In this document: positions 5,465-28,120 of the stretch, piece by piece
Layout: each line of letters begins with the position of its first letter
How positions within the stretch are numbered: the stretch's first letter is position 1
Source: Amphiscolops sp. MND2022
Lineage: Eukaryota
Direction of reading: 5' to 3'
DNA length: 64,000 bases
Assembly (NCBI GenBank): GCA_964187785.1
Contig: OZ076409.1
Location: forward strand, 68,078,001 to 68,142,000
Translations under genes and position numbers: made by a program
Notes under the pieces: generated by a model
What the model was told of the DNA's origin: nothing
The model's database searches: none
The model's input: only the letters and a program-made list of their open reading frames with translations

Positions 5465-5491
5465 TGTCCCAGGCGTCCGCCTGAGATGGCA
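5465..5491 (+). repeat. First 27 bp of the element B 5' LTR, separated from the rest by element A
   Basis: tgtcccaggcgtccgcctgagatggca matches 38200-38226 with one mismatch, and the match continues at 24703. Confidence 0.9.
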
Positions 5492-6224
5492 TGTAACGAC
5501 AAGCTCTCACCATTGTCGCCGTAACCATAAGAGTAGGAGGAACACATGGCATGGGTATTTGCCCGGGACAGGCGCCCATGGCCATGAGTCCATTTTGCCT
5601 CCTTCGGGTAAGAAATGTCCCGTCAGAGGAGGATTCCGCTTCTTGTGAAGTGCTCGCCGGCCTGATCCAGTCTGTAATTGCTATCAGTAGTGCGCATTAC
5701 GCTTTTTCTTCGAAACCAACACTTAGACAGCCTTTAAAAAATGCAAGTGGTGGAAAGGAAAAATCAAATTTTTTCGAAGTTACACAGGAGATCGAAACGA
5801 GTAGCTCACGAGCTGTTACAATAAGAAAATACGAAAATTACTACATAATTAGCACTTTTGAGGCAGCAATTAGCCGGGACACAAGCACGGATGCTTGGTC
5901 AAGCTAATTGACTCATTTTTGGTAATCACAGCGTCTTGTAACGCTTCGCTGAAGAAAGCACTGGTTAGAACAAAGTTCAGTCCGTTTTGGCAGAAATTTG
6001 AGTCTTTTTCTGACAGCGGCTGTATTTTTCTGCAGTCTTCTTGTTCGGTTGGGGTCTCTCTCGAGTCTTTTGCTCAAATTCTCTTCAATTCCGTGGGCAG
6101 GTACTTGAATAAAGACACGCTGCCGTCTAGCGGAATATGACTCTTTAGTAGAGGAGATATAGTCCCTTGAACGAAATTTTCATCGAAATTTTCGAAATCG
6201 TGCACTCGATAGGTAATCGCTACA
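5492..6224 (-). repeat. Element A 3' LTR (733 bp)
   Basis: TGTAACGA...TCGCTACA imperfect terminal inverted repeat. Direct repeat of 23969-24702. Confidence 0.95.
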
Positions 6225-6240
6225 TACACTCCCCGGGGTC
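6225..6240 (-). other. Putative polypurine tract of element A
   Basis: Minus strand reads gaccccggggagtgta immediately before the 3' LTR. The purine run is short. Confidence 0.45.
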
Positions 6241-7235
6241 TAGTCTTGACGTCCCCGTCAAGTGTGGGTTGGCGTCATCGAGTCTGTACCCAGAGTCACC
6301 TGTGTCCCACTGAGGAGGTAGAGTGCACATCAAGTAGCGCTGGGCAGTTCATTGGGACATCGTCAAGTTGGCCTCGTGGAAGTGTTTTTGACCCAGCGTT
6401 GCTGCATTTTGATCAAATCAACACCACTTTGTATACAAATCTTATACGGCAAGGTCATTATTTTTTGTAGCCTGTCGTGAGCAATTCAGGCGTTAAAATT
6501 TCTTTTCGGCCATTCAAGAAAAATTTTTTATTTGCCGTTAGTGTTAAAACTTGTTTTAAGGTCAACGACCATCACATGACTGTTCGAAACTTATTTTCCG
6601 AAGCTCGGGAGCTTCGCACTACTTGGCGTTTGATAAAAGTTCTTTTGGTAAGCAGTTGCCATAAAATCAATCAATTAGTACGGTCAATTTAAAATTTCTT
6701 TTGCGAGACTTACTCTCGATCCTATCAGGTAGCTCAAGAAAAACAATGGTCGAGGTTCATCAATCTTTTTATTCTATCCATTTCTCATCTCTCCCTTTTT
6801 GTTTCCTTTTCCTTCATTTTTTCTTTTTGTCTTTTTCGACAATAGCAACAGTGTAAACAATCACTAGTAACTAAAAGGGTGTAATAGCACCGAAAATTTA
6901 GAGCACGGAGTGCGCACAGCGCATCCACATCTAGCATAAGGTAGCATGAAAAAGCACTAACTGCAAACACAAATTGCAAGTTGAATATTGCATCTAACTA
7001 AGGCAAGGCAAAGACGCAGTTTCATGGTTGGGTTGCCGGTCCCAAAACGGAATAGTAAGGAGGATGAAGCCCGGGGGCTTCATCTCCACTTGGAGATTTT
7101 TACCCATGACCAATTGGCACTTCCATAATCGAAGTTTAGCAACAACAGAGATTGAAACCATGAGATTTCGCAAAAGTTCATCTAGCGTAAGACTATTGAA
7201 GTTAGAAATCGAATGGCGACAATGTTAGGTTTGTT

Positions 7236-10200
7236 TTACTGGGTGGCGGAGGAGTGACGCGCTCTGGGGGAGACGTCGGCCTTTGGTTGCAGTTCGGACA
7301 GGGATCCTCTTCGCGTATTTCCTTCTCGCAGGACTGGCTTTGGTTCGGCGCTGGCAGTTTCATGGGTCCTGGGAGTCGTGTTTGAGCCACTAGGGCCATC
7401 TTCTGCGGCTACGGGAGTTGAGGCTTCTGGCGAATGTTCTTGCGCTGCATTGGCTGAGCCACTAACATTGGCAGAACTTGTGGTCGACGTGGAGATTGGG
7501 ATCTGCACGTCCAATCTACTGGCATTAAACAGGTGCGGTAGATCTAGCGGTCTATTGCGGGTGGCAATGGGTCGTTTCTGCTTGGCGCTGAGTTTCGGGC
7601 GTAGATCAGGTCGGCCCCAGAGCCCGCAGGCTCTGGACCAGTTGTCCCTGTTTGCATGTTCTATAATTTGTCTGGAGGCTTCCCATTCGGGTCCGAGGGG
7701 ATCACTCAGCAATTCCATGACGTGGTAGCAAGTCTCCGCTGGCATGTCGCTTCCCATAGTGACCCTCGCCTCTGGATTCCAAACAGGCATTGTCAGTGGG
7801 GGGATGATCAAACCTTTCAGGCGCCCTTGGCGTTCCTCCAGGGTCCTTGACATCCACACGCCTAGTTTGTAGTGATCGCGATAGGCGTACTGCTCATCAA
7901 AGCCCTTCTCGACCATGCTGATTGGCTTAGACCGGATATAACCGATGGGTCCTCGCCAGTACCTGGCTGGAAGCTTGATCATTTGAAAATTATACTCCTG
8001 ATTTGTGTGACCGCCCATGGTTTGCACGCATTCGGTCACGTACTTTCTGAGGTGTGCGAAACTCCAATTAAATCGCTGTGGGATTCCAAGGTGATCTAGG
8101 GGCGAATTGTACCAATTCACCGGGCCGTATTCGCGAGGTAAGGGGCACGCCTTCTTCGTTCGGGCTTTGAGAATACCGGCCAGGTTTTCGTCTTGCTGCG
8201 TCTCATTCTTTATGGTGGTATACATGCGGGGTACTAGCAGAAACAGCCCACGTTCAAGCATCTGTTGATAGTTGTGCGGTTTTACGTTCTTCAGATAAGT
8301 CAGGATGGATACTGTTAGTGTCTCCGAGGCCAGTCGCAGAGGCTTGGTGGGATAGCGAAGTATCCCGGTTGGGCCAAATATCGGAGTTAGCACGGGTGCT
8401 AACACCGGTACAAGATCTTCGACTTCAGCCAAAGTGAAATCTGCCAGCTGGTTAGGTGTCAAAAATCCAGCTACCTCGGTCACTAGCTGACGTCCGTCAT
8501 ATAATGGTTGGTGCTTATCCACCCCCACGAAAAGTCCCGAGGCAAAGACCAGACTGCAATATATCCAGTGATATAACGAAGTTGTCATGCGCTCCAGGTG
8601 AGCGGGATAATCCTGAGCGTCTTTTCGTTGTAACAGCTTGGCTAAGGCGGTGAGGCCTGAGATATTCCCTCGTGCAATCACTAAATATGAAAATAGCCAT
8701 TCCAGATTACACTCGGTAACCAGGTCGGTCAATATCATCATTGGGCCAGCTACGAAGCGTTTCTGCCCGAAAGTGAGCATCAGTGCAAAGAGTTCGTTTA
8801 CTTGCATGGTACCGATAATCTCGCTGATTTCGATCAACCAGTTCTCGTCTAAATCGAACTCAACTCGAATAACATCGGGACTCCAACCCAATCCCAAACA
8901 GATGGCAAACTGGTCGGTTGACATCCCAAGCTCTTTTGCAGTGTCTGCTACGGTGGTAGTTTTTAGCCGCTGGTACCAGGCGTCGTAGGTGCTGCTGAAG
9001 GCTTGGATTTCAGCCTGAGTCTCGCTCGTCAGTTTTGCAGCAATGTACTTCATTCCCACTGATAATTGGTCAATTGTGAGGTCCTGGGCAAATTGAACTC
9101 GCGGGATGGCTCGTTCTACTTCTCGGTCACTGGGGACTTTGCTCATTATGGCAGTGACTTCCGCAAGATCAGTTTTAATACAAGTCTTTCCACCGGAGGA
9201 GCGCGCGCGCTCTATCCAGTTATTCAGGCGGATTGCCTCACATTCAGCCGTACTGGGTTCTGGGACTCGCCTTTCTCCGTCGTTGTTGAATACTAACAAG
9301 CCCATACGAGTGCCGTGATCAAAATAGATGGCATCATCGATTGTCAGCTGCGCGTTCCCTGTCTTTTCCACTGACTGTAGCACTTTAGACACTGAGGCAA
9401 CATACCCCATGTAGGAAAGCCAGGAGGGACGAAAGTCGTTGGAGCTGATCCGCATATTGGGCGCGCAGATCGCAAAGTCTATTTCTCTACATTTGCAAAT
9501 TTCTGTTACCATGTAGATAAATCTCTGCAAGGCGGGAGGCCACTGGCAGAAACCTGGGGGTGTCACAAACAGGGCTGTCACCTTGAGTTTATCCTTTAAG
9601 ATGTTTTGGGCCTTTTCCATGGCTCGGGCCATGTTCAGTGCTGCGTTGCGTACTGTTGTTCGCTGTGCTGGACTTGGATTTATAATTTCAACGTTCGCGA
9701 TCTGGGCCATTAGTCCTTCACAGGCCATGTGATCGAAAACGTTACTGATGATTACTCTGCGTGGGGGTGGCTCTTTGAAGGTCCCCGTCATCTCAGGGTC
9801 AAACATGGTGACCAACACTTCGGCCATCTCGGGAATACGTGACAGCGGTAGAGTAAAAACCATCACGTCTGACAGCACATTGTCAATGGGGACATTCTTG
9901 AGGAATGTTGAGTCTATAAGTAAGGCGAAGCGCGCACGCTGCAACCTTTCTTTTGGCATTGGTAGCTGGGCTTCGAGGTCACGGGCGTACCGTGGGTTGA
10001 TCTCGAAGGTCTCTCCAGCGTTGAGGAAACATCGATTAGCGAATTGCCCACGAAGGTCAATGTTGAGGGCGTCCAGGTAATTGTCTTCCACGTTTGGCAG
10101 CATATTCATTGCCTTCCCTAGCCATGGCGGCTCATTGGTAGGGGTGTGGTCGGGGCGGATTGGACGATTCATGAATACAGGTACATTCGCCTTCTTCAAT

Positions 10201-10667
10201 TTCGCATGCTCTTCGTCATTCGGAGGACACATGTTCTTCTCAAATAGCCATTCGGGCGATACTATAACTGCCGATTCCCAGATACGTCGGGAGTCCTTGG
10301 TGATCAGTGTGCCCTTTGTGTTTTGCATTGGACTCAGGTACGTCGGTTGTTTCGTAAAGGTCCTCTTAGTTGGGTGTTGAATTGCCTGTTTGCGGAGTGG
10401 GGTTCCAGTTGGACCACTGTTGGTTACCTTCAATCCTGGGTAATCACCCATTATGTCCTTGACAGTTCGCTGAGATTCAGGGGTGCCTTGATAACCCACA
10501 GTTTGCTCCGTTTGTGGCTGTCTTGATGTAGAAGGCTTAGGAGTCGCTCGTTGAGCCAGCGACTCGCGTGTTGTAGACTGCGTGGATGGTGGCTGCGGCA
10601 GTCCTTGTTGTTCGCCTGTTACGTCCGGTTGTGATTGGGGTGAGGGAAGCACGGATGCTTCCGACAC
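7236..10667 (-). CDS. Element A accessory ORF2b (1143 aa; frame open to 10898) with a degenerate SGNH/GDSL hydrolase-like domain
   Basis: Long intact ORF downstream of pol. Motifs LLIDST, FTLPLSRI, RVIISNVFD, LFVTPPG and NDFRPS fall in SGNH block order (~9935-9375). No in-frame ATG at its 5' end, so it is probably continuous with ORF2a. Confidence 0.75.
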   Translation of the reverse strand: MSEASVLPSPQSQPDVTGEQQGLPQPPSTQSTTRESLAQRATPKPSTSRQPQTEQTVGYQGTPESQRTVKDIMGDYPGLKVTNSGPTGTPLRKQAIQHPTKRTFTKQPTYLSPMQNTKGTLITKDSRRIWESAVIVSPEWLFEKNMCPPNDEEHAKLKKANVPVFMNRPIRPDHTPTNEPPWLGKAMNMLPNVEDNYLDALNIDLRGQFANRCFLNAGETFEINPRYARDLEAQLPMPKERLQRARFALLIDSTFLKNVPIDNVLSDVMVFTLPLSRIPEMAEVLVTMFDPEMTGTFKEPPPRRVIISNVFDHMACEGLMAQIANVEIINPSPAQRTTVRNAALNMARAMEKAQNILKDKLKVTALFVTPPGFCQWPPALQRFIYMVTEICKCREIDFAICAPNMRISSNDFRPSWLSYMGYVASVSKVLQSVEKTGNAQLTIDDAIYFDHGTRMGLLVFNNDGERRVPEPSTAECEAIRLNNWIERARSSGGKTCIKTDLAEVTAIMSKVPSDREVERAIPRVQFAQDLTIDQLSVGMKYIAAKLTSETQAEIQAFSSTYDAWYQRLKTTTVADTAKELGMSTDQFAICLGLGWSPDVIRVEFDLDENWLIEISEIIGTMQVNELFALMLTFGQKRFVAGPMMILTDLVTECNLEWLFSYLVIARGNISGLTALAKLLQRKDAQDYPAHLERMTTSLYHWIYCSLVFASGLFVGVDKHQPLYDGRQLVTEVAGFLTPNQLADFTLAEVEDLVPVLAPVLTPIFGPTGILRYPTKPLRLASETLTVSILTYLKNVKPHNYQQMLERGLFLLVPRMYTTIKNETQQDENLAGILKARTKKACPLPREYGPVNWYNSPLDHLGIPQRFNWSFAHLRKYVTECVQTMGGHTNQEYNFQMIKLPARYWRGPIGYIRSKPISMVEKGFDEQYAYRDHYKLGVWMSRTLEERQGRLKGLIIPPLTMPVWNPEARVTMGSDMPAETCYHVMELLSDPLGPEWEASRQIIEHANRDNWSRACGLWGRPDLRPKLSAKQKRPIATRNRPLDLPHLFNASRLDVQIPISTSTTSSANVSGSANAAQEHSPEASTPVAAEDGPSGSNTTPRTHETASAEPKPVLREGNTRRGSLSELQPKADVSPRARHSSATQ

Positions 10668-11593
10668 TTTTGATTTTGTTTGGTTTGGCGTTTTGGAGGT
10701 TGTGGTCTTCTCGTTGGAGATCTTTTTGTCGGGTGGTGGCTTGCTCGAGGGGCTGTCAGTGGTTGTTGAGTCTTTTTTGTTGGAGAAGGGTCGTTGCGTT
10801 TTCTGGAGGCAGGGCGGCTCTCTCCTCCCCCCTTTTGAGAAGAGCGGGAAGGCGAACGACTGCGCTCTACAGTCACGGTGCGGGAGTGTCCTGGCTGTTC
10901 AGACTGAGGATTGATGTGGGGAATAGTGATGACATCTTGACGTGTTTGAGTTGAAGTGACATTGTCGTTGCGAATAGTAACAGTGGGCAGAGCAATTCGG
11001 CGTAGTTCAGGCCAACACTGCTCCATGGATCGCATGAAATCATCGTAATTGGGGTTGACAGCTACTGCTTGCAGTGCTGAGATGACTGCTTGCTCCGCCA
11101 TTGATTGATTAGGCAAGTTAGGCACTATAGGAGCAGGAGTGCGCGCACGCACTACTGCTTGTGGTGTTGATGCAGGAGGTGGCGGTGGAGGTGGAGGCGG
11201 GCAAGAAGGGATCTGTAGAGATCTGGTTTGATGGACTCCGCCATTCGCAGGACTGTATGAGATCGCCGCACGATCATCCGTAAAGTGATGCGTGAGATCA
11301 TGGCCGTGCCACACTCCATCTTGGTATGTCATGGATCGTTGGAACCCAGGAAAGCCTGAAGTAATAGATATCGTCAGCATAGGGGCTTGCAATTGTGACT
11401 CCATCTGGGCTATGATTGCCGCCACCCCGGCAACTGTAGCTGGCGACAGACCTTGGTCGAGTCTGTCTCGAATAAAGGCAATTTGTGGGGTACGTTGGAC
11501 ACGCGCAGTGTCGTAGACGCGTTGCCCCAAGGCAGGAGAGTCATCTGAAGACCTTGGAGGGACGTTGTTGCTTCCATCGTTATCTTGGTTCAT
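10619..11593 (-). CDS. Element A accessory ORF2a (Pro/Ser/Arg-rich; likely N-terminal part of ORF2)
   Basis: ATG at 11593 (MNQDND), preceded by the splice-acceptor-like cactctttcag. Overlaps ORF2b, which is in the -1 frame. Confidence 0.65.
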   Translation of the reverse strand: MNQDNDGSNNVPPRSSDDSPALGQRVYDTARVQRTPQIAFIRDRLDQGLSPATVAGVAAIIAQMESQLQAPMLTISITSGFPGFQRSMTYQDGVWHGHDLTHHFTDDRAAISYSPANGGVHQTRSLQIPSCPPPPPPPPPASTPQAVVRARTPAPIVPNLPNQSMAEQAVISALQAVAVNPNYDDFMRSMEQCWPELRRIALPTVTIRNDNVTSTQTRQDVITIPHINPQSEQPGHSRTVTVERSRSPSRSSQKGGGESRPASRKRNDPSPTKKTQQPLTAPRASHHPTKRSPTRRPQPPKRQTKQNQKCRKHPCFPHPNHNRT

Positions 11594-11603
11594 GACGGTA
11601 ATT

Positions 11604-11620
11604 CTGAAAGAGTGCAGGTC
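11604..11620 (-). promoter_or_regulatory. Putative splice acceptor for a subgenomic ORF2 mRNA
   Basis: Minus strand reads cctgcactctttcAG|aattaccgtcATG, between the pol stop (11818) and the ORF2a ATG. Confidence 0.5.
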
Positions 11621-11817
11621 GATTGTAGCACACTTGATAGTAGGGCAGTACCATAGGTCATTTTGAGGGTAATACCAGGGAAAGTAATAGAATATCACAC
11701 ATTAACATTGAAGAAAAAGGTAACTTATTAGTTTCAAATAAACTCCGTGTCGATTCACTAAACTTAATCGAGCGGACAAAAAACAAAACAACGAAAAAAA
11801 AGAAGAAAGCAAAAGTT

Positions 11818-14800
11818 CTACGGAAAGCTAGCGACGCTTGCAATAGATACGTAAACGCGATCGTGAAGAACGACGGTCAAGGGGGTGTCAGCGAACACGT
11901 CCATCAAACAGGTATAAAAGTCGAAAAGATTACGTATTGGGCGCTCAGGATCAATGATGGCAAAGTGTACTTCTATCGCCTCCAAGCGCTCGAGTAACGT
12001 TTTCAAATGATCAAGACATCCAAAGAGAATATCGGCGAGCATAGGGCAGCGAGGTGTAGCCCGTGTGATTAAAAGATGGATAGTCTGAGGATGGCCGTCT
12101 ATCAAAGATGTGGGTAGCGTTACAATATTGCCGACCTCCGGTCGAAGTTGAAAGATTGCGTCTGCACCATGCTCACGAATGACGTAACGAAGAGCGGCAG
12201 AATTAGTTTCCAGGCTTGCGGGACAACATAAAACAATGTGATGGGGAGTCTGCAGGAAGTCCGTATTGGCATACTGCACATAGTCAACCAATTGAGGTCT
12301 CACGGCTCCATGGTATACTAACTCTCGTCCGGGGTCTTTGGAGAGAGCATCGGTACATGTGTTCGGGAGGAGGCCCTTAATGGCGCCCAAGTCTTGCCAC
12401 ACAGATCGCGGCAACGATTGGTTATCAATGTTAGCCCTGGACCATGTATCCAGTGCGTGCAGGGCTGATTGGAGTGATACAGGGCTAGGAAATGAGTGTG
12501 TCCACTCGTCCAGGAATCTGATTCGTGAAAAGTTCGATAAGACTGCTACGATAAGTTCTAGCCACCATTCAAACTTAATTTTACCACGATATAGGTCTAT
12601 AGTGTGGAAACAAGTGATTCTATCAGGAGAGGCCATCGTCCGCAAACTCTCCAGACAGGTGTTCAAGTCAGTGGGATGAACCAGGTCAGATGCTTGTTTG
12701 GCCGTAACTAGTAGCCACCAGTTGCTTGTAGGCTGATAAACGTCTCCTGGTTTTGCGGTGACGTTGTACTTGTCATATAAGAGGTCAGCAGGAGTACAGC
12801 GTATCATTTGGATAGGCTCTCGTTCATAGTTGAAAGGACCAAAGGCAATATTTGTAGGCAAAGGGGGAAGAGTGATGGGTAAGGTGAACTCCAAACCAAC
12901 AAGATCATAGGTCCACTCCTTGAACCTTGGGCACGGGGCCTTTGCTATCCTAGAATCTTTCATTCTGGATAGGATATAGTCCACGGGATATGGAGTGTCG
13001 CTGCGTTGTAGCCCAGTATATGTCTTCTCGGCTCGAATAACCAAACGGTCAACCGTTCCGCTTGGAAGCGATTTCTCCTGTTCACGTGCTAACAGGACTT
13101 TCTGGGGTTTGATTGGGAAGCCCGCGTGGACCATGTAGTTACATTCGCAGTCTCGTAGGCCACATGTTCCGCAACGATATCTGGGAGTGCGATTGCCTCG
13201 CAGTCCATAACGAGCGTTGGTCGATTCTGGCGGTGTTGCTTGATCTGAGGTTACCGCCGCGCTAGGGGCAGAAGTGTCAGTGTCCATGGATGGAGTGTTA
13301 CGAACACGGGTAGGAGTGTTGGGTCTGGCGTGCGTTATACGAGGAGGTCTTCCTCTGGGACGGCCTCTTTTGCGAGCGCCTCTAATAGCACCTCTCCGTT
13401 GGTGACCACGTGGTAGCGAGGCTCGCGGCCTCGCTCTGCCTGGCTGACGTCCCCGCGGTCCACGCCCTCTAGGAGCATTGGAAAGTTTCGTGGTGGGAGC
13501 TGCGTTATTGTTGGTGGGAATTGTCGCAGGGGGAACAGATCCCTTTTCGTCATTGGTCGTTGGTGTCTCAGCACCGTCGTCGTCTAAGGTTGGGTTGAGA
13601 ACATTGTCATCGATGAGGGGCCAAATGGGAAAGTTACTCAACATATCCGTAAAAGATGGATTTGTCAATAATGGGGCGGATGTACCGGTCAAAGAGGTGC
13701 CGGCACTTTCGGTGGGTACGTGGATAGTAGGATTCGGGGCGATGTCCAATGCGTCGGGTACTGCTTCATTCTCTGAGAATAGAGCCTCCATGGCAGGTAG
13801 TGGTGATATTGGCATTTCGGGAATAGGCGCAGGTTCATCTACATGTGACGACAAGATAGCACTCTCATCAGGACTAGCCTGAACACTCGACAGGAGTACA
13901 TCAGAACGTTCATCGTCAGACTCAGTCGAAGAATAGCCAAATTGTTGATAATGTAGGCGGCTGCCACCTGCGCGCATGCGTGTGCGTAACCGTGTGTCCA
14001 TCCAATGTCTTTGTCGAGAAGGCAAAGAGGCATTACTGGCTTCTGAAGTTGGCTCCTCCGCACGATAAGAAGGTTGCGAAGCATCGTCTCTCACCTCCTC
14101 GTGGGATTGTTCAGGATCAGGGTCCATGATGATAGCAACCTCACCGTTATGCGCAGGAACAGCTGCCCATTCTGTTGGACCACCATGATGCGGTTTCAAT
14201 CGTTCGAAATGTACTTTCTGACCAGTGTCAAGTATGTAGACGCGTCCCTCTTGTAGCACTCGTGCTATCTTGTGAGGACCACGCCACGCTCTCATCAATT
14301 TGGGAGATCCCTTTTGAGGAATGTATCGGCAGAATACCCAAACAGGTTCGCCCACTTCGTAGGCTTTAGCACGAATTGATCTGTCGTATTTCAACTTTTG
14401 TCGTTGCTGGGCTTGATGCGTGTTGCGACGGACTAAGTCATGAATCTCTTGTTGTCGAGCCAGCACATGTTCCACATAGGCTTCGTGTGATTCGAATGAC
14501 TGAGTTGCAAATTCTGGATACAAGAAAGTCAGGGGTATAGCTTTTTCCATGCCTCTAGTCAGCATATACGGGGAGAATCCAGTAGTGGCATGACGTGTGG
14601 AGTTGTATGCACCCATGACTTCATCTAGATACTGATCCCAATCACGCATTCGTCTAGAGCAGAATACACGCAGTAGGGTGAGTAGCGTTCGGTTTTGTCG
14701 CTCTACCAACCCTTGAGTCCTGGGGTGGCCAGCAGTTGAGGTTACTTTGGTCACTTGGGCGGCTTTCATAAACTCAGCGGATACTGCTGCGGTGAAGTTG

Positions 14801-16263
14801 GGAGCATTGTCTGACTGCATTCTCGTCGGCGTTCCATGGCGGGCAAACCATTTCTGCAACAACAATTTTGAAGTGGTGGCTGCATCATATTCATCGTGGT
14901 TGCACGGTACAGCTTCTGCGAGCTTAGAGAAGTGATCGATAATAACCAATATCCCTGTGTTGCCATCATCAGAGGGACAAATCTTCATGTGGTCATATTG
15001 GACTAGCTCGTTAAAATAACCGCTTTGGATATTTTTCAAGTGGAAGCGTACATCACCAGGCTTGTCACGTACTTGTTGACAAGTGATGCATTGGCTGACG
15101 TATTGTCCAATGGTGCGGCGGATACCTGGCCAAGTGTGGCGCTCTTGAATTCTGGCCAAGACTTTCGCGATGCCCTGATGTCCCATCGCGTCGTGGGCCT
15201 TGAATAGTATCTCATGCTGATACAATTGTGGCATCACTATCATGCAGGGGCGTTCATGCAAAGCTCTTTGACTTTTCGAGTACTTTACACACAAAATCCC
15301 GTTGGTGTTTATCAGCAGAAGGTTCTTCTTTTGTTTGTGGTAGTTTTTGGCAAAGGCACGTACATTTTCCGGAAAGATGTCATGATCTATTGATTCTTGC
15401 ATTACTAATTTCTTGATAGCCAATATATGAACGTCACGGTTTTGTGCTAGTAGTAGATCTTTCAACCCGTGGATTGTGTTAGCATGTTCATGCAGTTCCA
15501 TCGATATGCTGTTTACCACAAACGCGGCTTGCTTTACGTGCTCTGGTGCAGTGCTGGTTGCTTGCTTTTCCGTCAGTGGATAAGTGGTTCTTGATGGTAC
15601 GTTAGCAGCATGCGTGGGGAGCAAATAGTCTCGTTGATATTCCTCGGTCAGTTCCAACCAATCCTCGGGATACTCTGAATAAAGTTCGGCAGGCAGTGTC
15701 AATTCTGGTTTTGGCAATGTAGGTAGGGGCGCTCTCATGGCTTCGTCGCGTATGATCGCACTTCGTTTGCTTTGTCCGCTCTTTCGCGTGGGAGCGGCAA
15801 CTGTGGTCTCGGGTGAACCTTGGCTACCCAACCTCTGCAAGTGTGCAGGCAATTCTGGGTGATTTGGTATCACACGTCCGTGGACATCGAACCATGGGGC
15901 TAGCGGGAGTTTGTTGTATTCCTCCTGTGATATGAAGTCCCATTTGTCTGCAATTGCGGGTAAACCCTTTAGTTGCTTTTCGTGTTTTTTGTAATCATTT
16001 GTTCGTTTGCTAAGACCGTCAGCATTTCGGTGTTGCGTTCTGGGTCGGTGCTCAATACTGAAGTGATATTTTTCAAGAGCCATAATCCATCGACCGATGA
16101 TCGCCTGATCCATCGAATATGTTTTTAGCCAGGATAGGGCCTGATTATCTACCCTCAGTGTGAATTTTCGTGGACAGAGATAACTGTGGTTTTTCAAGAT
16201 GAAATAGTATGCAGCATACATTTCCAATTTTGGGGCTCCATACTTTGCTTGCGTAGCGGTCAA
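11818..16263 (-). CDS. pol: Element A pol C-terminal part: end of RNase H, integrase, and a long tail with AT-hook, Cys cluster and macrodomain-like units
   Basis: RNase H end (VDNQAL, NADGLS). HHCC (HDAMGH...CITC). DDE core (YDH, SDN, VERQN). GPY/F-like WRGPHKI. In frame with the upstream ORF across a single TGA at 16273-16275. Confidence 0.93.
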   Translation of the reverse strand: MTATQAKYGAPKLEMYAAYYFILKNHSYLCPRKFTLRVDNQALSWLKTYSMDQAIIGRWIMALEKYHFSIEHRPRTQHRNADGLSKRTNDYKKHEKQLKGLPAIADKWDFISQEEYNKLPLAPWFDVHGRVIPNHPELPAHLQRLGSQGSPETTVAAPTRKSGQSKRSAIIRDEAMRAPLPTLPKPELTLPAELYSEYPEDWLELTEEYQRDYLLPTHAANVPSRTTYPLTEKQATSTAPEHVKQAAFVVNSISMELHEHANTIHGLKDLLLAQNRDVHILAIKKLVMQESIDHDIFPENVRAFAKNYHKQKKNLLLINTNGILCVKYSKSQRALHERPCMIVMPQLYQHEILFKAHDAMGHQGIAKVLARIQERHTWPGIRRTIGQYVSQCITCQQVRDKPGDVRFHLKNIQSGYFNELVQYDHMKICPSDDGNTGILVIIDHFSKLAEAVPCNHDEYDAATTSKLLLQKWFARHGTPTRMQSDNAPNFTAAVSAEFMKAAQVTKVTSTAGHPRTQGLVERQNRTLLTLLRVFCSRRMRDWDQYLDEVMGAYNSTRHATTGFSPYMLTRGMEKAIPLTFLYPEFATQSFESHEAYVEHVLARQQEIHDLVRRNTHQAQQRQKLKYDRSIRAKAYEVGEPVWVFCRYIPQKGSPKLMRAWRGPHKIARVLQEGRVYILDTGQKVHFERLKPHHGGPTEWAAVPAHNGEVAIIMDPDPEQSHEEVRDDASQPSYRAEEPTSEASNASLPSRQRHWMDTRLRTRMRAGGSRLHYQQFGYSSTESDDERSDVLLSSVQASPDESAILSSHVDEPAPIPEMPISPLPAMEALFSENEAVPDALDIAPNPTIHVPTESAGTSLTGTSAPLLTNPSFTDMLSNFPIWPLIDDNVLNPTLDDDGAETPTTNDEKGSVPPATIPTNNNAAPTTKLSNAPRGRGPRGRQPGRARPRASLPRGHQRRGAIRGARKRGRPRGRPPRITHARPNTPTRVRNTPSMDTDTSAPSAAVTSDQATPPESTNARYGLRGNRTPRYRCGTCGLRDCECNYMVHAGFPIKPQKVLLAREQEKSLPSGTVDRLVIRAEKTYTGLQRSDTPYPVDYILSRMKDSRIAKAPCPRFKEWTYDLVGLEFTLPITLPPLPTNIAFGPFNYEREPIQMIRCTPADLLYDKYNVTAKPGDVYQPTSNWWLLVTAKQASDLVHPTDLNTCLESLRTMASPDRITCFHTIDLYRGKIKFEWWLELIVAVLSNFSRIRFLDEWTHSFPSPVSLQSALHALDTWSRANIDNQSLPRSVWQDLGAIKGLLPNTCTDALSKDPGRELVYHGAVRPQLVDYVQYANTDFLQTPHHIVLCCPASLETNSAALRYVIREHGADAIFQLRPEVGNIVTLPTSLIDGHPQTIHLLITRATPRCPMLADILFGCLDHLKTLLERLEAIEVHFAIIDPERPIRNLFDFYTCLMDVFADTPLTVVLHDRVYVSIASVASFP

Positions 16264-16272
16264 CTTCTTGCT

Positions 16273-19200
16273 TCAGAATACAATCGGTCGCAATTTGCGA
16301 CTCTCAGGTGGTCCTTGCCATTGGTGCAGAATGCCTGATATAGCTACACCACTAGCATCTGTGTCGAGAACAAATTCGCCTTCAGTGTCAGGTTGCGCCA
16401 GAGCAGTGGCTTCCATTAGTGCCACTTTGATGCTGTTAAAGGCTCGCTGCTGCTCCTCCCCCCATAAAAATGAAGAGTCTACGCCTGTTATCGCGTGTAA
16501 AGGGGCAACTAGTTTTGCATGCCACGGGATAAAATCCCGATAGTAGTTGGCAAAACCCAAGAAACTTTGCAATTCAGTCTTGGTTCGCGGGATATCCCAT
16601 TCTTTCAGCTTGGTGACAGCTTTTGGATCTGGCTTGATACCATCTGCGGATACGACCCGGCCCAAATATTTGATCTCCGATTTCATGAAGTCACACTTGG
16701 AGACTCTCATTTTGAACCCGGCCTCACGCAGGCATTGGAATACTTCGCGTAGTCTATCCATGTGGTCCTCGATGGTCTCGGTAGCAATCACAATGTCATC
16801 GATATAGGCCATGACCATGCTTCCTTCACGGTTCACTATTCTTTGTAGCGCTCGCGCTATTGCCCGTTGAAATGTTGCTGATGCGTTACACATACCAAAA
16901 GGCATACGCCGCCACTCAAATAACCCAAGTTCACAAGCGAAGGCAGTCTTTTGACGATCGGCTTTTCGGACAGGAATTTGCCAGAATGCCCACGCCAAGT
17001 CAATACTAGTATAGATTTTGGCTTTGCCCAATCGGGATAGACTCTCATCGATACGTGGCAAGGGATAAGCGTCTTTGATGGTCACTTCATTGAGTGGTCG
17101 AAAGTCACAACAGAATCGCAATTCACCACTCTTTTTTTTGACCATAACAATTCCACTCGCCCAAGGGGATAGGGAAGGTTGTATCATTCCCAAAGCTAGC
17201 AAGTCACGGACTTCTTGGTTAGCACGTTCTGCCTTGTCAGGCGACATTCGTCTTGCACCTTCGCGGTGGGGTACAGCCCCTGGCTCTACTTCCACCGGGT
17301 GCTTAGCGATTTTACACTTGCCAATATCGGCTTTGAATTTCATAAACAAATCATCAAATTCGTTCAAAAGTTTACTAAGCGTGTCGCTGGCGGTCGATCC
17401 CCACAAACCGCGCACCTCGTCGAGTTGTGCTTCCGGGCCCGGTATCGGAGCCATTAACGCCGGATCGGTTCGTTTTTTTACTTCGCGCTCGGACAAGCCT
17501 AGTTCTGACGGTTCGGTAGAGGACAAAAACTCAAATTCAGATGAAGAACTATATTCAGAAGAAGAATCAAGGTTCATCTGTTCGTAAACTTTACAAACAT
17601 AATTTGCATTTGACTGCTGAGTTTCATTTGATTGCCCGGGGACAATTTGGGGGATGGCTTTATGAACCATCGTTACGGGTACTGCGGTTCCTAAAAGGGT
17701 GCCCTTTTTGATCCGCTGCACGTTGCTGGTAAGATTTCCTAAACTGACGTAAAGGAAGCCAGTCTCCCCCACGGTCGCCACGGTGTCCTCTAAAAAGATG
17801 GCGTTTTTTAACATTCGGTTAGGTGTTTGAAAATTGATTAGCACGGTTCGAAACATGAAAGGTTCTAAGTTGTCTACAAGCAATTTAGCGCGTAGTATTG
17901 CGCGTTCAAAAGGTTGCAACACTACGTCCTGTGCAATCGCTACCGACGAATTGAGTGATTCGTTACTTACTTGTGTGTGGGCATGGTACCACACTGGTTC
18001 AGAGGGAGCTCGGACAATGACTTTCATCGCGGTCAAATCTACCAAGACTTGATAGGCTCTTAGGAAATTTCTTCCCAGGAGGAAATCTTCCACTCCCATA
18101 GCGTCATCAACTACCACGAAGTTAGTTTCCAATTCGTAGCCTCCCAATTGGAACTTGACTTTCTCTGCTAGACCAAAAGTCTTGATCGTCTTTCCATTCG
18201 CGGCATATAAGTCAATACCATAAGGTCGTAAGAGTGTCCCAGTGCGCACGGCGACTCGATTGTAGGCTGAGAAGGTGAGGATGGACACTCCTGATCCAGT
18301 GTCTATCAGACCACGTAATGGTACGGGAGCAGCATCGGGAACCACGAATGAAACTACGAGCGACGCACGCTCATCGATTCTCGCCTCACCAGTTGGTTCT
18401 TGAGCATCAATGTTATAGCAGCACAGCTCTTGTGGTCCCAAGCAGATTCCAGGAGGAAACGCGTCAGTAATAATAGTGGCACCAAAACGCATGTCTACAC
18501 CATCTATGCAAACTTTGACTGGAATTGGAGAATAGGCATGATACGTCGAAGTGACACCTTTTACCTGCCATTCTTCCGGTTGGGGCAGGGTCAATTGTCG
18601 GCAATTCTCGTTTGCGGTTATCTCTTCTATCAGAGCGTCTAAGGTGAGTTCTGGGCGGGTTTCTCTCTCAATCGCCAACAGTAGTCGGACAGACATGATA
18701 GTGCGTCCCGAGGGATCAAAAGTAGTTGGCTCTGGGCTCGCTTGGATTTGGATCTTGCCACATGTGACGGTAAGGGGCGTCGTCACGTGAGCGGCTTCAG
18801 CGGGGCGAAGCATGAGTACCATTTCGCTGTCACTCATTGTTTGGGAAGCAGATGGCTGTTCAGCCCAGAGGCTGTAGGCCAAATCCTCATGTACTGGAAC
18901 ATTTTGGCATTGTGATGCAGAGTGTTCGGTCATGCCACAATTAACACAGAATACGGGGCCAGAACATGCAGAGGCCACATTGTTCTCACACAGGTTTACT
19001 CGCTCTTCGGGTGCAGCGCGAGCCGCGGGTTTCCTTGCTAGGTCTCGATTTGGGCATTCCCTTGCAAAGTGACCTGGTAGTCCACAGTTGAAGCATGCTC
19101 CTTGGGGAATCACTCTCGCTGGTTGCTGCTGTGCAGGAGCCTGTTTTACTGATGCAGGGCCTGGTGGAGCTATCTGGGGTTTTGCCTCTCGCTGTCCTTG

Positions 19201-21585
19201 ATTTGGAGGTAGCACGTTTTGCGGTAGGCCTGGTGCTGGGTGAACCAATTTCCCTGGCACGAAAGGGTGAGGCCTCGATTTCATTGCATACCTTGGGTCG
19301 TAAGGCTTTGACGTGTTTGGGCGATGCCGTTGCAATTGTCTCGTGGTGAACCTTAGGGATTCTACAGTTGGCGGCTCGGTCAGATATGCCTCTGCAGCGT
19401 ACACCACGGCCAACTCTTGTCGCAGCGTCGGGTCATTGACGCCATCTATAAAACGTTGCAGGATTTCATAACGACGTGTAGTGATAGGCTCGTCTGGGAA
19501 ACCTTGGGTGCGCAGACCTTCCAATGCATCTAAGAATTGCATCCAATCCTCTTTTTCCTGTTGGACACGAGACATGAAGGTTTGCCTGACGTGCATGCGG
19601 TTCCCACCGGTTCCAAACCTGCTGGCCAAGAGAGAGAATACCTTGTCGGGCTCGTCTCGTTCAGGTTCAGATTTGTTGATTATATAATTTCTCGCCTCCC
19701 CTTCCAGGTGGTCGATGATAGCCCATGCTCTGTCGATCTTTGGGGATTTTGCATGCACCCTTTCTAGAAATCGCTTCATCACTGGGAGCCATCCATCGAC
19801 AGAACCATCTTTAGTGCCTTTGTATACCGTAGGGCGCACCCTAGTTTGATCCCGATTAGCAATCAGCGGCGCTAGTTCCTTGGACATAGCTTTGGATATT
19901 GCCTCGGTGAACCTAAGTTGCTCCGGTGATATAGGCGCTTCTTCAGTGATAGCTGGTGGCGGGATACTGCTGCCTCGCGTTGAGTTGACAGAGTCATCGG
20001 TGCTTTCGGGGAGAGTCACTTCTCGGTGTCTAGTGCTGCTGGCGCATGGGTTGCCCGGGGGCAGTTCATCGTTCGCGGTTTGGAGTTCTGCGGCTGATTC
20101 TCCCAAAGTCGCATTTGCTGTTTGGAAGGTGCTGGTGACTTCAGTTAGTTCGTTTGTGCGTGTGGGCTCTCGCAGGCCGGTGATCCCCATGCTTGAAGTG
20201 TCGATAGTTATCACCTCGCACGTTGGTTCCTTCTTGTGAGTTTTGGTCGTGGGTGGAATATATTTTGTTGATACCGCAGATGGGATAAATTTCGTTGATG
20301 TTGATGCGGCTTCTCCATTTGAGACCAGAGTTTGTGGCAAAGGCGCGTACCTGGTCAAGTGTTGTTTAGAGCCGGATGGGTTTGTTGCGGTCGTCACACT
20401 CTCTTTTGGCTTGAGGGAAACGCTTTTCATGGGTTTTGGCAGTGATATATCGGTGTCTTGCAGCAACTCTTTGATGGTGTTGCCTGCTGGTGCGGGTTGA
20501 GGTTGGATATTTTTCAACATAGTGCCCATTGCTTGTATCTGTGAACATACCTCTTGCAGTTGAGCTTCCATGGGTACTTCTCTTTCGGTCACCATGTCCT
20601 TTATTTCGGCCATTCGATAACCCATGGCATCCATTCGGGCTGCCTGAATTTCATGTCCTTGCGCTTGTCGTTCAGTTGATGTTCGCAGTTCAGTTTGCAC
20701 GGCTTCTATCTCCTCCATTATTGATTGATGCTCCCTATCGCACCTTGCTTTACGTTCAGACAGTTGTGAAGCAGCTTGCTTCACGCCTATTTGAGCATCT
20801 AATAGAGCTTTGCGCGCTTTCGCTGCTTCATGTACGGCTCGGTATGCCGAAGATCGGGCAGATGCAGCCTTTGATGAGGGTGAGGATGAGCGCGAGTCGC
20901 CATGAGGTCCTGTAGTGCCAGTCTGTGCTAGTAGAGCTGGAGGCCGTACTTGCTTACCCTTCCCAGATGCTCGGGGAGCCGTAGCTTCTTGAAGACGTGC
21001 CCTGGCATAATTCATACCCCCGACATAAGACATTTGTTGCAATATCTCTGCCGTGTTCGCAGTGCTCTCGCTTGCCATGCTGGGAGCCTTGAGTTGTCCA
21101 GTGGCATTCAAGCAACTCATTTCAGCTTCTTCCTCAGCGTTTGTCCTGTTGGAGTTGGGCCATGTTCCTGCTTCGTCAGTACCGAAAGGTGTAACGGCTA
21201 CTTTGGTCAGTTCTTGCAACCATTTGGACGTGTGCGCCTGACTTCCTGTTTCGTCTGCTGAACCTCCGATATCATCGGTAGTCTTGGCGATCGGCTTAGC
21301 CTGATATTCCTCCGATGCGTCGTCTGACATAGGGTCTGAAAAATCGGGTTCCATAACGAAACTGTCGTCAGTTGGCCAATCTTCCTCCCTGGGGTCTGAG
21401 GTCAGGTCTGATATTGCACTGAGATTTGTCTCGCACCCCGTTGGGTCTGGTGTCTTTGATGCTTCAGTGCATCGCGAGGTGTCCTTCCTCCCCCCTTTTG
21501 AAAGATTAGAGCATCGCCGGGTGTTCGTGCGGCTTAATGTTCTCGTTATAGAATTCCAAAGGTTACGCAAACTGTTGGTTTTCAT
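16273..21585 (-). CDS. gag-pol: Element A gag-pol N-terminal part: Gag, protease, RT, start of RNase H
   Basis: Knuckles CFNCGLPGHFAREC and CVNCGMTEHSASQC. Protease LIDTGSG...LLGRNFL. RT motifs RFCCDFR, MPFG, YIDD. RNase H LDTDASG. Confidence 0.96.
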   Translation of the reverse strand: MKTNSLRNLWNSITRTLSRTNTRRCSNLSKGGRKDTSRCTEASKTPDPTGCETNLSAISDLTSDPREEDWPTDDSFVMEPDFSDPMSDDASEEYQAKPIAKTTDDIGGSADETGSQAHTSKWLQELTKVAVTPFGTDEAGTWPNSNRTNAEEEAEMSCLNATGQLKAPSMASESTANTAEILQQMSYVGGMNYARARLQEATAPRASGKGKQVRPPALLAQTGTTGPHGDSRSSSPSSKAASARSSAYRAVHEAAKARKALLDAQIGVKQAASQLSERKARCDREHQSIMEEIEAVQTELRTSTERQAQGHEIQAARMDAMGYRMAEIKDMVTEREVPMEAQLQEVCSQIQAMGTMLKNIQPQPAPAGNTIKELLQDTDISLPKPMKSVSLKPKESVTTATNPSGSKQHLTRYAPLPQTLVSNGEAASTSTKFIPSAVSTKYIPPTTKTHKKEPTCEVITIDTSSMGITGLREPTRTNELTEVTSTFQTANATLGESAAELQTANDELPPGNPCASSTRHREVTLPESTDDSVNSTRGSSIPPPAITEEAPISPEQLRFTEAISKAMSKELAPLIANRDQTRVRPTVYKGTKDGSVDGWLPVMKRFLERVHAKSPKIDRAWAIIDHLEGEARNYIINKSEPERDEPDKVFSLLASRFGTGGNRMHVRQTFMSRVQQEKEDWMQFLDALEGLRTQGFPDEPITTRRYEILQRFIDGVNDPTLRQELAVVYAAEAYLTEPPTVESLRFTTRQLQRHRPNTSKPYDPRYAMKSRPHPFVPGKLVHPAPGLPQNVLPPNQGQREAKPQIAPPGPASVKQAPAQQQPARVIPQGACFNCGLPGHFARECPNRDLARKPAARAAPEERVNLCENNVASACSGPVFCVNCGMTEHSASQCQNVPVHEDLAYSLWAEQPSASQTMSDSEMVLMLRPAEAAHVTTPLTVTCGKIQIQASPEPTTFDPSGRTIMSVRLLLAIERETRPELTLDALIEEITANENCRQLTLPQPEEWQVKGVTSTYHAYSPIPVKVCIDGVDMRFGATIITDAFPPGICLGPQELCCYNIDAQEPTGEARIDERASLVVSFVVPDAAPVPLRGLIDTGSGVSILTFSAYNRVAVRTGTLLRPYGIDLYAANGKTIKTFGLAEKVKFQLGGYELETNFVVVDDAMGVEDFLLGRNFLRAYQVLVDLTAMKVIVRAPSEPVWYHAHTQVSNESLNSSVAIAQDVVLQPFERAILRAKLLVDNLEPFMFRTVLINFQTPNRMLKNAIFLEDTVATVGETGFLYVSLGNLTSNVQRIKKGTLLGTAVPVTMVHKAIPQIVPGQSNETQQSNANYVCKVYEQMNLDSSSEYSSSSEFEFLSSTEPSELGLSEREVKKRTDPALMAPIPGPEAQLDEVRGLWGSTASDTLSKLLNEFDDLFMKFKADIGKCKIAKHPVEVEPGAVPHREGARRMSPDKAERANQEVRDLLALGMIQPSLSPWASGIVMVKKKSGELRFCCDFRPLNEVTIKDAYPLPRIDESLSRLGKAKIYTSIDLAWAFWQIPVRKADRQKTAFACELGLFEWRRMPFGMCNASATFQRAIARALQRIVNREGSMVMAYIDDIVIATETIEDHMDRLREVFQCLREAGFKMRVSKCDFMKSEIKYLGRVVSADGIKPDPKAVTKLKEWDIPRTKTELQSFLGFANYYRDFIPWHAKLVAPLHAITGVDSSFLWGEEQQRAFNSIKVALMEATALAQPDTEGEFVLDTDASGVAISGILHQWQGPPESRKLRPIVF

Positions 21586-23950
21586 GATTTCGCACGTCTC
21601 GAAAAGTCAAAAATCGATCTAGGGGTCGTACCGGCGTGAAACTTACACAGCGCGTTGATACCGTGGTGTGGGGCCGGAAACCGTGCGTTTGGGGCTTGCG
21701 GAACAGCTGATTCGCAAACAATTGAGTTTTTAGACAATTTTTGAGTTTTTTAGATTTCTTTATAAATGACTAAGATGCTTCGGACGCAACGCGTAATCAT
21801 CGGAAACACTTGAAAATTGGCCACCTGACCTTGTGGTAGGTGTACTACGCGATAGCAAAATCAAATCTAAGCTAAGGTTTTTATTTCAAGATTCGGGCTG
21901 ATCCGGACGTTCGGTACCCTTAGTCATCAAGATACATCAATTTTCATGCTTATTTCAAGATTATGCTTTACTGAAAAAAGCTAGCGGGCTCAAAATTTGC
22001 AAAACAACGTAGTATCTGGTACAAATGATAGAAACGAACGGCAATTCAACCTCGCTTTTTAATTAAGGTACTCGGATCACTCAGGAAAACTTTGAAAAAT
22101 TTCCCTTTATGCCCAACTTTTTGAGTGGTACGTTTTTTTTTTATTTTCTCACCAAGTACCGGTTGGATTGATACGAAACCTTGTAGCTACAGTCGATGAG
22201 CGTATACAATGCCGGTGAAACCATCAATTGAAAGCGCGGACGCTTGTTTGAGGTTCCGACCTTACTTGGATAACACTAAAAATTTTGGACTACTTTTTTT
22301 TTACAAATTCGCTAAGAGGGTCACCTCAAAAAGTGGTAGGGCTGAAAAAATGGGACCTACGTGTTGCCCCACTACTCGTAGTACTAGGATAAACCCTCGA
22401 TTAGGTGTGCCCGTTAAACACGAGGCACCGACAGTTCGTCAGTTTTGGATTATTTCGGCAGTTTTATAGTCCCCTGAAGTTGAAACGTTAGAGAACTTTT
22501 TTTGACTTTGGTGAAAGTTACGTTCACCAAATTTTCGGCACTAGCGTTATTTTTAGTGGTGGTTGTGAAAATACAACCACCTTTTCGCTAAGGTCCAAGG
22601 ATCAATGACCCGACCTTAGCTCAGAGACAGTCCGGATTTTAGGAAAATGGAGGCTTTTCAGTGCATTTTTCTACTTTTCTCAGCACTGAAAAGGAATTTT
22701 GGGATGCGGTCTTCACTATAGATCGTTAAATTTACTGAATAAACTGAAAATAATAGCCCGGGGGCTATTCTAACCGTAAAAGTGTTCGTCAATAGTCAAA
22801 TTGTGTTTCTTCTAAAAGTACTATAGAAAAACCTCAAATTCACAGTTCTCGTAACTTTTTTTAAGAAGTAGTGGTTATAATTACCAAAATGGGTATTGTT
22901 GGGTACCGGCAGGTGTGCCCCAACCTAATTGCAACCATACGGGGGTGTTTGAAAGCTTCTATACAAGTTTCCCCACAAATTCAAAGTGCTAAAAATGTTC
23001 AGTCTTCCAAAAACGGGGTTTTTTCCTCACAAAATTTATACTAAGTGCCTTTTCGGGCAACTTTGAGTAGTTCGTCGCGTTTTTTTGCGAACTCATTAGA
23101 GTCCTGAGCTACTTTCATTTAATTTCTGCAGGTGTGTGGCTAGCACCAAGAGCGCTCGCGCTCATGTAAGTGTTTCGCCTCAAAATGGCCAAATTTGGCA
23201 CTTTTCGTCGAATATACATGAGAAAACGCACTTTTTTCGCACAAAACAGGTGCAAAAGCACACACTTAGTTACAGAAGGCTCGTAAAAACATTGGCAAAT
23301 GGTTGTACATAAAATTTTGAGCAACCCAAAAAATTTTTTCAACCTGACTCAAAAATATCATACAACCCGGACTGACGAGTCGTGTCTTCTCGTTCTTTTT
23401 GCTCATCACCCAGAACAGCTAGAGACAAACGGGTTGCACCATTAGACACGTCAGCATTTGTAGTACGTCTCCACCAAATTTCATTTCTCTAGGTTGCCTG
23501 TACGGGAAATGGGATCGGTGAGTCGTATAACTCGTTTCGGCAGATTGTAAGATTCCTTTGAGCAAGGATCGTCCTCTTCTCAACACTCACTTCATTGGTC
23601 ATAAAAAGCTGAAAAAGGCTAGAAAACACCTGTTAACACTTCTAGCAGCCTTCCAACGGCTTGCTGGACCAATTTGCGAGTGACCCGTCAAGAGGGTAGA
23701 CTATTTCGATCGTTACCTGTCAACTACTAAAAAAGCATAAAAATTACAACATACAGCGCTTTTTTGCAAGATTTACCTATATCCACCGGGCTTGAAGTCT
23801 TCAATAACACATACAGGGTAAAAACGTGGAAAAACTCTGCTTCTCTCCTCTTTCCATCAGAGTCGGGTCGTACTTGGCGTTAATCACCAGAGTGTCGGCT
23901 ATTTTAAAACCATTAAGGGAAGCACTTCGAAGCGATCCCTCTGTGGTCGC

Positions 23951-23968
23951 CATAAAATGTGTTCTCCA
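23951..23968 (-). other. Putative primer-binding site of element A
   Basis: TGGAGAACACATTTTATG directly follows the CA end of the 5' LTR on the minus strand. The tRNA is not identified. Confidence 0.6.
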
Positions 23969-24702
23969 TGTAACGACAAGCTCTCACCATTGTCGCCGTA
24001 ACCATAAGAGTAGGAGGAACACATGGCATGGGTATTTGCCCGGGACAGGCGCCCATGGCCATGAGTCCATTTTGCCTCCTTCGGGTAAGAAATGTCCCGT
24101 CAGAGGAGGATTCCGCTTCTTGTGAAGTGCTCGCCGGCCTGATCCAGTCTGTAATTGCTATCAGTAGTGCGCATTACGCTTTTTCTTCGAAACCAACACT
24201 TAGACAGCCTTTAAAAAATGCAAGTGGTGGAAAGGAAAAATCAAATTTTTTCGAAGTTACACAGGAGATCGAAACGAGTAGCTCACGAGCTGTTACAATA
24301 AGAAAATACGAAAATTACTACATAATTAGCACTTTTGAGGCAGCAATTAGCCGGGGACACAAGCACGGATGCTTGGTCAAGCTAATTGACTCATTTTTGG
24401 TAATCACAGCGTCTTGTAACGCTTCGCTGAAGAAAGCACTGGTTAGAACAAAGTTCAGTCCGTTTTGGCAGAAATTTGAGTCTTTTTCTGACAGCGGCTG
24501 TATTTTTCTGCAGTCTTCTTGTTCGGTTGGGGTCTCTCTCGAGTCTTTTGCTCAAATTCTCTTCAATTCCGTGGGCAGGTACTTGAATAAAGACACGCTG
24601 GCGTCTAGCGGAATATGACTCTTTAGTAGAGGAGATATAGTCCCTTGAACGAAATTTTCATCGAAATTTTCGAAATCGTGCACTCGATAGGTAATCGCTA
24701 CA
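23969..24702 (-). repeat. Element A 5' LTR (734 bp)
   Basis: Direct repeat of 5492-6224. I found only one 1-bp indel and one substitution by eye. Confidence 0.95.
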
Positions 24703-27459: not shown

Positions 27460-28120
27460 AAACTAGACCGATTGAGGTCAATGTCCAATCAGCTGGCGTG
27501 TCAGAGGAAGAGCAAAATTTCTTCAATGAGGAGGATAACGAAACGGAAGAACAGATTTGGGAACGGAAAAAACAATCCAAAAAGGGACTCATTGGACGCT
27601 GATTCCACTTTTGAATTAAAGGTGCTGAATGATGAATACAATTACTCAGAACTTAGAAAAGCCTTTATTTTCTCATGAAATGGATACATAGTGTCGAAAG
27701 ACCGCATGGTAATGAAATGTTGCGTGCTGTTAATAAGTCTCATGCAAGATGATGGGACGCATGTAATTTGCTTATGTATATGTGTGCTGTTAATATGCTT
27801 TCTAGACGCAAGGGCTTCCCGCCAACAGGTTACCTGTCGGGAAACCTCCTTTGAAGTCACTTGCATCATAATGACGTCAATAGCTAGTTGTTGCTATTTT
27901 TAGAATTGTTACTCTTTTTAGAAAGCCCTTAAGGCTATTTGTAGAATATGACAACTCATATTCTGACTGTCATGTAGTTTTTAATATATATAGCCGGGAC
28001 ATTCAGTCCCGGGGACACAGGTTGTGAAAAACTACATGTTAAAGTTACTTGTTACAGTAATATCACGTTGTATTTGCAAGTTAAAAGATAATTAACATCT
28101 TTACCTTGTGACAATTTCTT

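Follow-up and report, generated by a model that had tools for sequence, protein, structure and literature searches.

What does a Gypsy-like retrotransposon encode in the position of env, when the protein found there does not resemble an envelope (Env) protein? This question is raised by a 64,000-nucleotide stretch of the Amphiscolops sp. MND2022 genome (assembly GCA_964187785.1, contig OZ076409.1, positions 68,078,001 to 68,142,000 of the forward strand), which we refer to as the window. The window contains a long terminal repeat (LTR) retrotransposon of 19,211 bp on the minus strand (5492–24702), in which an open minus-strand frame of 1143 codons (10667–7236) lies 3′ of pol. We denote the corresponding open reading frame (ORF) ORF3. 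To our knowledge, the third, non-Env ORFs of LTR elements are mostly unexplained, and those of the SGNH type have been read as membrane-passage enzymes. The evidence described here supports a predicted SGNH fold for the core domain of ORF3, in which the catalytic His is probably replaced by Arg throughout the family.

Predicted fold and active site of the core domain

The five motifs that an earlier, sequence-only reading of this DNA had listed in SGNH order were all found in the 1143-aa frame, in the order stated: ALLIDST (aa 248–254), VFTLPLSRIPEM, PRRVIISNVFDHM (containing N309, D312 and H313), ALFVTPPG (P370–G372) and NDFRPS (R413). In comparisons with known structures, the predicted structure of the domain showed a three-layer α/β/α fold with SGNH topology, and the top 50 structural rows all belonged to one superfamily, with no mixture. 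The SGNH assignment is thus supported by structure comparison, while the sequence-profile searches gave no significant match: no SGNH family was matched in Pfam or NCBIfam by the 16 members searched, and there was no sequence match in the PDB. Three points weigh against the assignment. Foldseek gave no match at E ≤ 0.001, a profile alignment (hhalign) against a TesA-like profile of 10 sequences fell short of significance (E 0.26–0.52), and model residues 21–55, which include Ser253, had a predicted local distance difference test (pLDDT) score below 50.

ORF3 had 430 relatives (representatives) at E ≤ 0.001 among 1.84 billion proteins, the best 150 of which were examined; almost all of these are ENA protein records. 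With this number of relatives, and with the quoted motifs falling on conserved columns, the ORF3 observation is, at the sequence level, beyond chance. At least four close families (P0002, P0450, P0009 and P0010/P0367) have full-length ORF3s, of 1426–1521 aa, and distant relatives of 1140 and 1187 aa share 24–29% identity over 600–800 aa. Clusters of relatives comprise 657, 581, 491, 237, 173 and 164 sequences. One distant relative (L012:3-815) lies on an 816-bp contig filed in a bacterial metagenome-assembled genome, and is probably eukaryotic carry-over.

Residue registers were derived from the range ends of ten rows of E. coli TesA, assuming no gaps. TesA Ser10 fell on Ser253 in seven of the ten chains and His157 on Arg413 in nine, although the chains are near-identical. 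Residue frequencies come from an alignment of 246 domain hits, in which every relative in the collection was used. Position 253 was Ser in 153 of 160 relatives, as expected for the block I nucleophile, although model confidence is low at that strand. Position 413 was Arg in 168 of 180 relatives (Cys in 5, His in 3, other residues in 4) and in all 29 relatives of at least 1100 aa. The His of the DxxH motif in block V is therefore missing, and the position −3 to R413 is variable. The replacement of this His by Arg, as the sequence-only reading had it, is supported by both the structure comparison and the Arg across the family, and because Arg413 is family-wide, the change is no lesion of the present copy. 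Read from the motifs alone, the Gly of block II would fall at L275 (Leu in 156 of 173 relatives, Gly in 3). Block III reads NxxD; its Asp is matched by D312, a hydrophobic residue stands where the canonical Asn would be, and the conserved Asn309 two residues earlier might substitute. N309 was kept in 175 of 179 relatives, D312 in 171 of 179 and H313 in 167 of 178. In the ZfL2-1 retroelement, hydrolysis is lost when the His of block V is mutated (PMC3905857). Taken with the family-wide His-to-Arg change and the apparent changes in blocks II and III, this makes it probable that the SGNH-like domain is a pseudo-esterase, unable to run the normal esterase reaction.

Full length of ORF3

The 1143-aa frame opens at a GTG internal to a stop-to-stop frame of 1220 codons. 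An overlapping upstream frame (10619–11701), with an ATG at 11593, corresponds to the N-terminal part of a longer ORF3. In the nearest cluster (657 sequences), the representative is 1456 aa long; its first ~300 aa match the upstream frame and the remainder matches the 1143-aa frame. Among the 15 members listed of the 657, eight matched both window frames within one chain, and four of these, together with the representative, are full-length (1456–1493 aa); the other seven are fragments. Since one-chain relatives span both frames, ORF3 of the present copy is broken near 10755, with its true start at about ATG 11593. The sequence-only reading had described an intact 1143-aa ORF 3′ of pol. The frame is indeed present in that position, but it is not intact, given its internal GTG start, the frame break and the location of the N-terminal ~300 aa elsewhere; by this comparison of sequences, both the break and the N-terminal part had been missed. 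The N-terminal part is 80–90% identical to the N-termini of full-length relatives and is kept across four families. It includes a small conserved domain (GLSPxxVAGVAA...WxGHDLTH; 11204–11521, minus strand) that is traceable in the distant relative P0217.

Helical domain and Env features

In the model of aa 490–1030, a helical domain at aa ~530–710 was predicted with pLDDT > 90, and the C-terminal parts were weak. Four fold searches, with pdb and viral libraries among them, and an Atlas search gave no match for aa 490–1030, searched as one 541-aa, partly low-confidence model and not with the helical domain alone. Two helix-turn-helix-like patterns (TxAxxAxELG... and xxxLAxxxxL) were noted by eye at the start of the helical domain (8900–9000, minus strand).

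A stretch beginning LYHWIY, which had been described as partly hydrophobic, has a Goldman–Engelman–Steitz (GES) value of 1.61. However, Asn/His/Lys/Glu are present in it in all five distant relatives, and it forms part of a long model helix, which makes a membrane span improbable. The highest Kyte–Doolittle 19-mer in the 1143-aa frame (1.73) falls in a proline-rich stretch. A pattern scan detected no furin site (R-x-[KR]-R) in the 1143-aa frame or in the window family. No signal peptide was found in the window family by a hydropathy scan, which is not a dedicated transmembrane (TM) predictor; the shared start (MNQ/MAH/MAD) is polar, and a hydrophobic upstream extension is found in some called proteins only (P0188) and is out of frame in the window. 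Hydropathy and pattern scans likewise gave no C-terminal membrane anchor, the tails being polar and disordered. These scans agree with what had been noted earlier about the lack of all three features, and support the view that ORF3 is not an Env protein.

Conserved short motifs

The linkers are only 12–17% identical between families, yet the RKR and SPxS[KR]PPxDK[KR] motifs were kept in all 11 close-family proteins first examined. In ten further proteins that include the N-terminus, RKR was found in all ten and SPxS[KR]PPxDK[KR] in eight. The best shared 11-mer scored above all 100 shuffles in three of four pairs; in the fourth pair, 4 of 100 shuffles came up to it. The pattern at the end of complete tails, RRxS...RxR[RH]xSx(1-2)Q, occurred in none of 10,000 shuffles. 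Presumably, the linker motifs are similar to nuclear localization signals (NLS), and the tail motifs are of the protein kinase A (PKA)/14-3-3 type. As predicted from these patterns, the conserved short motifs of ORF3 point to the cytosol or nucleus. Weighing against this, the tail pattern was defined post hoc, and P0212 and P0217, which are distant relatives of full length, lack the NLS-like and tail motifs; RKR and SPxS[KR]PPxDK[KR] were found in neither of two distant full-length relatives. The TTTCAG splice-acceptor-like site upstream of ATG 11593 is weak, and is not within the 12 most pyrimidine-rich of 472 YAG sites.

Possible functions of ORF3

We tentatively favor a model in which ORF3 is a Gypsy accessory protein of ~1,450 aa, intracellular and probably nuclear, that may act as a non-catalytic, phosphorylation-controlled scaffold protecting or exporting unspliced element RNA. 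ORF3 would be made from a subgenomic RNA whose splicing links a leader donor with the acceptor that precedes ATG 11593. Import of the protein into the nucleus would be the task of the RKR...PPxDK[KR] motifs in the linker, and the RRxS/RxRxxS tail motifs could serve as kinase or 14-3-3-type switches. The remodelled pocket, with the Ser kept and an Arg added, might bind an anionic ligand such as RNA phosphate, like the non-catalytic OSK domain of Oskar, which binds RNA (PMC5785220), while the unassigned helical domains might multimerise or recruit host factors, like CERV of Cer1. The charge of the domains weighs against RNA binding. The SGNH-like domain is near neutral, with a net charge between −4 and +7 across 12 lineage representatives. 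The helical domain is mostly acidic, and eight of its ten rows give a net −1 to −8. Both are atypical of an RNA-binding surface; together, these values weaken the RNA model and a membrane model alike.

Such a membrane model was put forward in the sequence-only reading, which took the SGNH-like protein for a pseudo-enzyme that binds lipids or membranes and may stand in for Env, by directing particles to membranes or helping cell-to-cell transfer. It fits the position of ORF3 3′ of pol, and the conserved Arg offers a possible contact for a phospholipid head. Binding to anionic phospholipids is known for the ORF1 esterase of ZfL2-1 (PMC3905857), and a membrane-passage role was proposed for rotifer GDSL ORF3s (PMC5408684). 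However, nothing that we tested supports this role: the domain is not strongly basic, whereas the esterase of ZfL2-1, which binds lipids, has a pI of 10.8 (PMC3905857), neither a secretory signal nor an anchor was found, the short motifs point to the cytosol or nucleus, and LINE (long interspersed nuclear element) esterases retain the complete catalytic set, unlike the ORF3 family. Even the authors of the rotifer study considered their GDSL ORFs unlikely to take over the function of Env (PMC5408684). We therefore consider the membrane model rather unlikely. An actual envelope or fusion glycoprotein of divergent sequence has only its position in its favor and is extremely unlikely, considering the absence of a signal peptide at the shared start and of a furin site in the window family, a disordered C-terminus in place of an anchor, and the lack of viral or PDB fusogens among the fold matches, in a search that is incomplete for aa 490–1030.

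The strong conservation of Ser253, Asn309 and His313 would also be explained by an enzyme, and in this respect argues against a non-catalytic scaffold. In a non-canonical active site, Ser253 would be the nucleophile, His313 or the conserved acidic LTxDDAxxFDxG motif the base, and Arg413 would bind an anionic substrate, for instance in a deacylase or acyltransferase whose targets are host proteins, lipids or RNA. D312 is similarly kept, and SGNH members with altered triads exist (PMC9487903). Nevertheless, H313 gives way to Asp in P0217, a distant relative of full length, and to Tyr in P0167, and both the apparent Leu at the block II Gly position and the effect of losing the block V His in ZfL2-1 make catalysis an improbable explanation. 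It is quite unlikely that ORF3 is instead a cytoplasmic counter-defence or ribonucleoprotein (RNP)-condensate protein that shields element RNA from PIWI-interacting RNA (piRNA) or other silencing, rather than a nuclear exporter. A probably inactive SGNH fold, set beside helical domains and long stretches of disordered linker, is reminiscent of Oskar, and the very high copy numbers (clusters of up to 657) and near-identical LTRs indicate recent success; but high copy number does not identify a cause, and the NLS-like motifs point to the nucleus. Finally, another flavodoxin-like α/β fold with a convergent resemblance to SGNH is very unlikely, considering the uniform structural rows and the conserved DS[TS] and [LF]RP motifs, which land on blocks I and V when counted from both ends.

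The host element and its surroundings

The 19-kb element has LTRs and the gag–protease–reverse transcriptase (RT)–RNase H–integrase order of Ty3/Gypsy elements, as identified with Pfam (Table 1). A single mismatch and a single gap column separate its LTRs, which marks the insertion as young. The putative primer-binding site may match the 3′ end of a tRNA-Arg. The 5′ leader (21590–23968, minus strand) is unusually long, at 2.4 kb, and has no long ORF. An in-frame stop (16273–16275) splits gag-pol in the present copy, while all 48 long gag-pol relatives read through this position as one frame; by this comparison, the stop is specific to the present copy. The ~430-aa pol extension after the integrase (11818–13100, minus strand) is 42–52% identical in sister gag-pol proteins and had no match in Pfam or the PDB. 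Its two halves are weakly alike (hhalign E 0.004) and may resemble degenerate macro/TARG1-type domains.

Comparison with an empty paralogous site of the host repeat in the window (38190–38256) and with a contig joint showed a target-site duplication of only 3 bp (GCA; 5489–5491 and 24703–24705) for this one insertion. Ty3/Gypsy elements generally make duplications of 4–6 bp. Three base pairs is short for an LTR element, but this is a single case, and a base may have been lost.

Table 1. Features of the ORF3-bearing element, in order of transcription.
Feature	Positions	Strand	Basis
5′ LTR, 734 bp, TG...CA ends	23969–24702	−	LTR pair comparison
Probable primer-binding site, TGGCGACC..., 16 nt inside 5′ LTR end	23935–23952	−	Sequence reading
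Two splice-donor-like sites AG/GTAA, 5′ leader	23716–23780	−	Pattern match only
gag (CCHC knuckles), protease, RT, start of RNase H	16273–21606	−	Pfam
Rest of RNase H, integrase, conserved ~430-aa C-terminal pol extension	11818–16272	−	Pfam and relatives
Pyrimidine run with a TTTCAG end, splice-acceptor-like, immediately upstream of ATG 11593	11603–11625	−	Sequence; weak
ORF3 N-terminal part: conserved N-terminal domain, helical hairpin, RKR motif (10804–10796)	10760–11593	−	Relatives
Frame break in ORF3 of present copy	10745–10760	−	Comparison with one-chain relatives P0002/P0188
Conserved SPxS[KR]PPxDK[KR] motif, disordered linker	10722–10754	−	Relatives
Predicted SGNH-fold pseudo-esterase domain, aa ~244–436; Ser253 codon 9911–9909, Arg413 codon 9431–9429	9360–9938	−	Predicted structure and comparison
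Highly conserved acidic motif GNxQLTxDDAxxFDxG, directly after SGNH-like domain	9288–9359	−	Relatives
All-helical domain, aa ~530–710, confidently predicted, without fold match	8538–9080	−	Model
Conserved C-terminal region, aa ~730–1030, poorly modelled	7578–8480	−	Relatives and model
Disordered tail, conserved RRxS and terminal RxR[RH]xSx(1-2)Q motifs; stop 7238–7236	7236–7550	−	Relatives
3′ LTR, 733 bp	5492–6224	−	LTR pair comparison

Elsewhere in the window, positions 25000–32070 (plus strand) hold the broken copy of a BEL/Pao-like element, which has DUF1759 and an integrase and contains a tandem duplication of ~2.5 kb; its BEL/Pao-type gag (DUF1759) would suggest an animal host. This element is followed by broken ORFs with a zinc-finger-like motif (32071–36298, minus strand), which may be a hAT/BED-type DNA transposon. 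Positions 48700–64000 contain more Gypsy-like remnants; one of them carries a tandem duplication of 3.2 kb, and one is an inverted relative at ~70% identity.

Relation to known systems

SGNH ORF3s with intact catalytic residues in rotifer LTR elements and altered GDSL derivatives in Athena-L were already known (PMC5408684; PMC6431247). The Vesta LTR retrotransposons of bdelloid rotifers also carry an SGNH-type ORF3 in the env position, are Gypsy-like and have no TM domain there. Rotifer LTR ORF3s keep the invariant catalytic residues, however, whereas the present family has the His-to-Arg change throughout, and, going by description, its ~190-aa SGNH-like domain is set inside a ~1,450-aa multidomain protein, unlike the Vesta ORF3 (PMC5408684). 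Athena-L Penelope-like elements also have a catalytically altered GDSL derivative, but are a different class of element, and their derivatives, again compared by description, were grouped with PC-esterases (PMC5408684). The ZfL2-1 ORF1p esterase (CR1/L2/RTEX LINEs) shares the SGNH fold in a retroelement protein, but has an active Ser-His-Asp, a pI of 10.8 and lipid binding, and sits in the gag position after a coiled coil (PMC3905857); no ZfL2-1-type LINE esterase was among the top 50 structural rows, which does not exclude kinship. The OSK domain of Oskar (PDB 5a4a) belongs to a host germline gene, and its score was tied with those of active esterases, indicating no special kinship (PMC5785220). 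CERV of C. elegans Cer1 is likewise a Gypsy accessory protein with a dead-enzyme α/β domain, further domains that are unassigned, and NLS-like and phospho motifs, but it has a pseudo-GTPase fold, is 517 aa long and shares exons with gag, making the analogy functional only (PMC10309623). In the literature searched, no ~1,450-aa pseudo-SGNH ORF3 was described, although the supplementary alignments of PMC5408684 and PMC3905857, as well as Repbase, may hold relatives; the excerpts of PMC13524379 and PMC6338049 do not mention SGNH or esterases.

It is possible, if doubtful, that ORF3 represents an old Gypsy accessory family in which a captured SGNH esterase was rebuilt as a Ser/Arg ligand-binding module and joined to a new helical fold. 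This family would be a Rev/CERV-like or anti-silencing regulator, independent of CERV and parallel to Oskar, and would make the 19-kb elements “complex”. Since the predicted fold is kept while the catalytic His is replaced over deep divergence, with distant lineages only 24–28% identical, the fold can apparently be selected for non-hydrolytic use. The ORF3 family also brings in a helical domain of ~180 aa that is predicted with confidence and has no structural match at present, and it could be used to test directly whether the esterases of retroelements are enzymes, lipid anchors or scaffolds for RNA.
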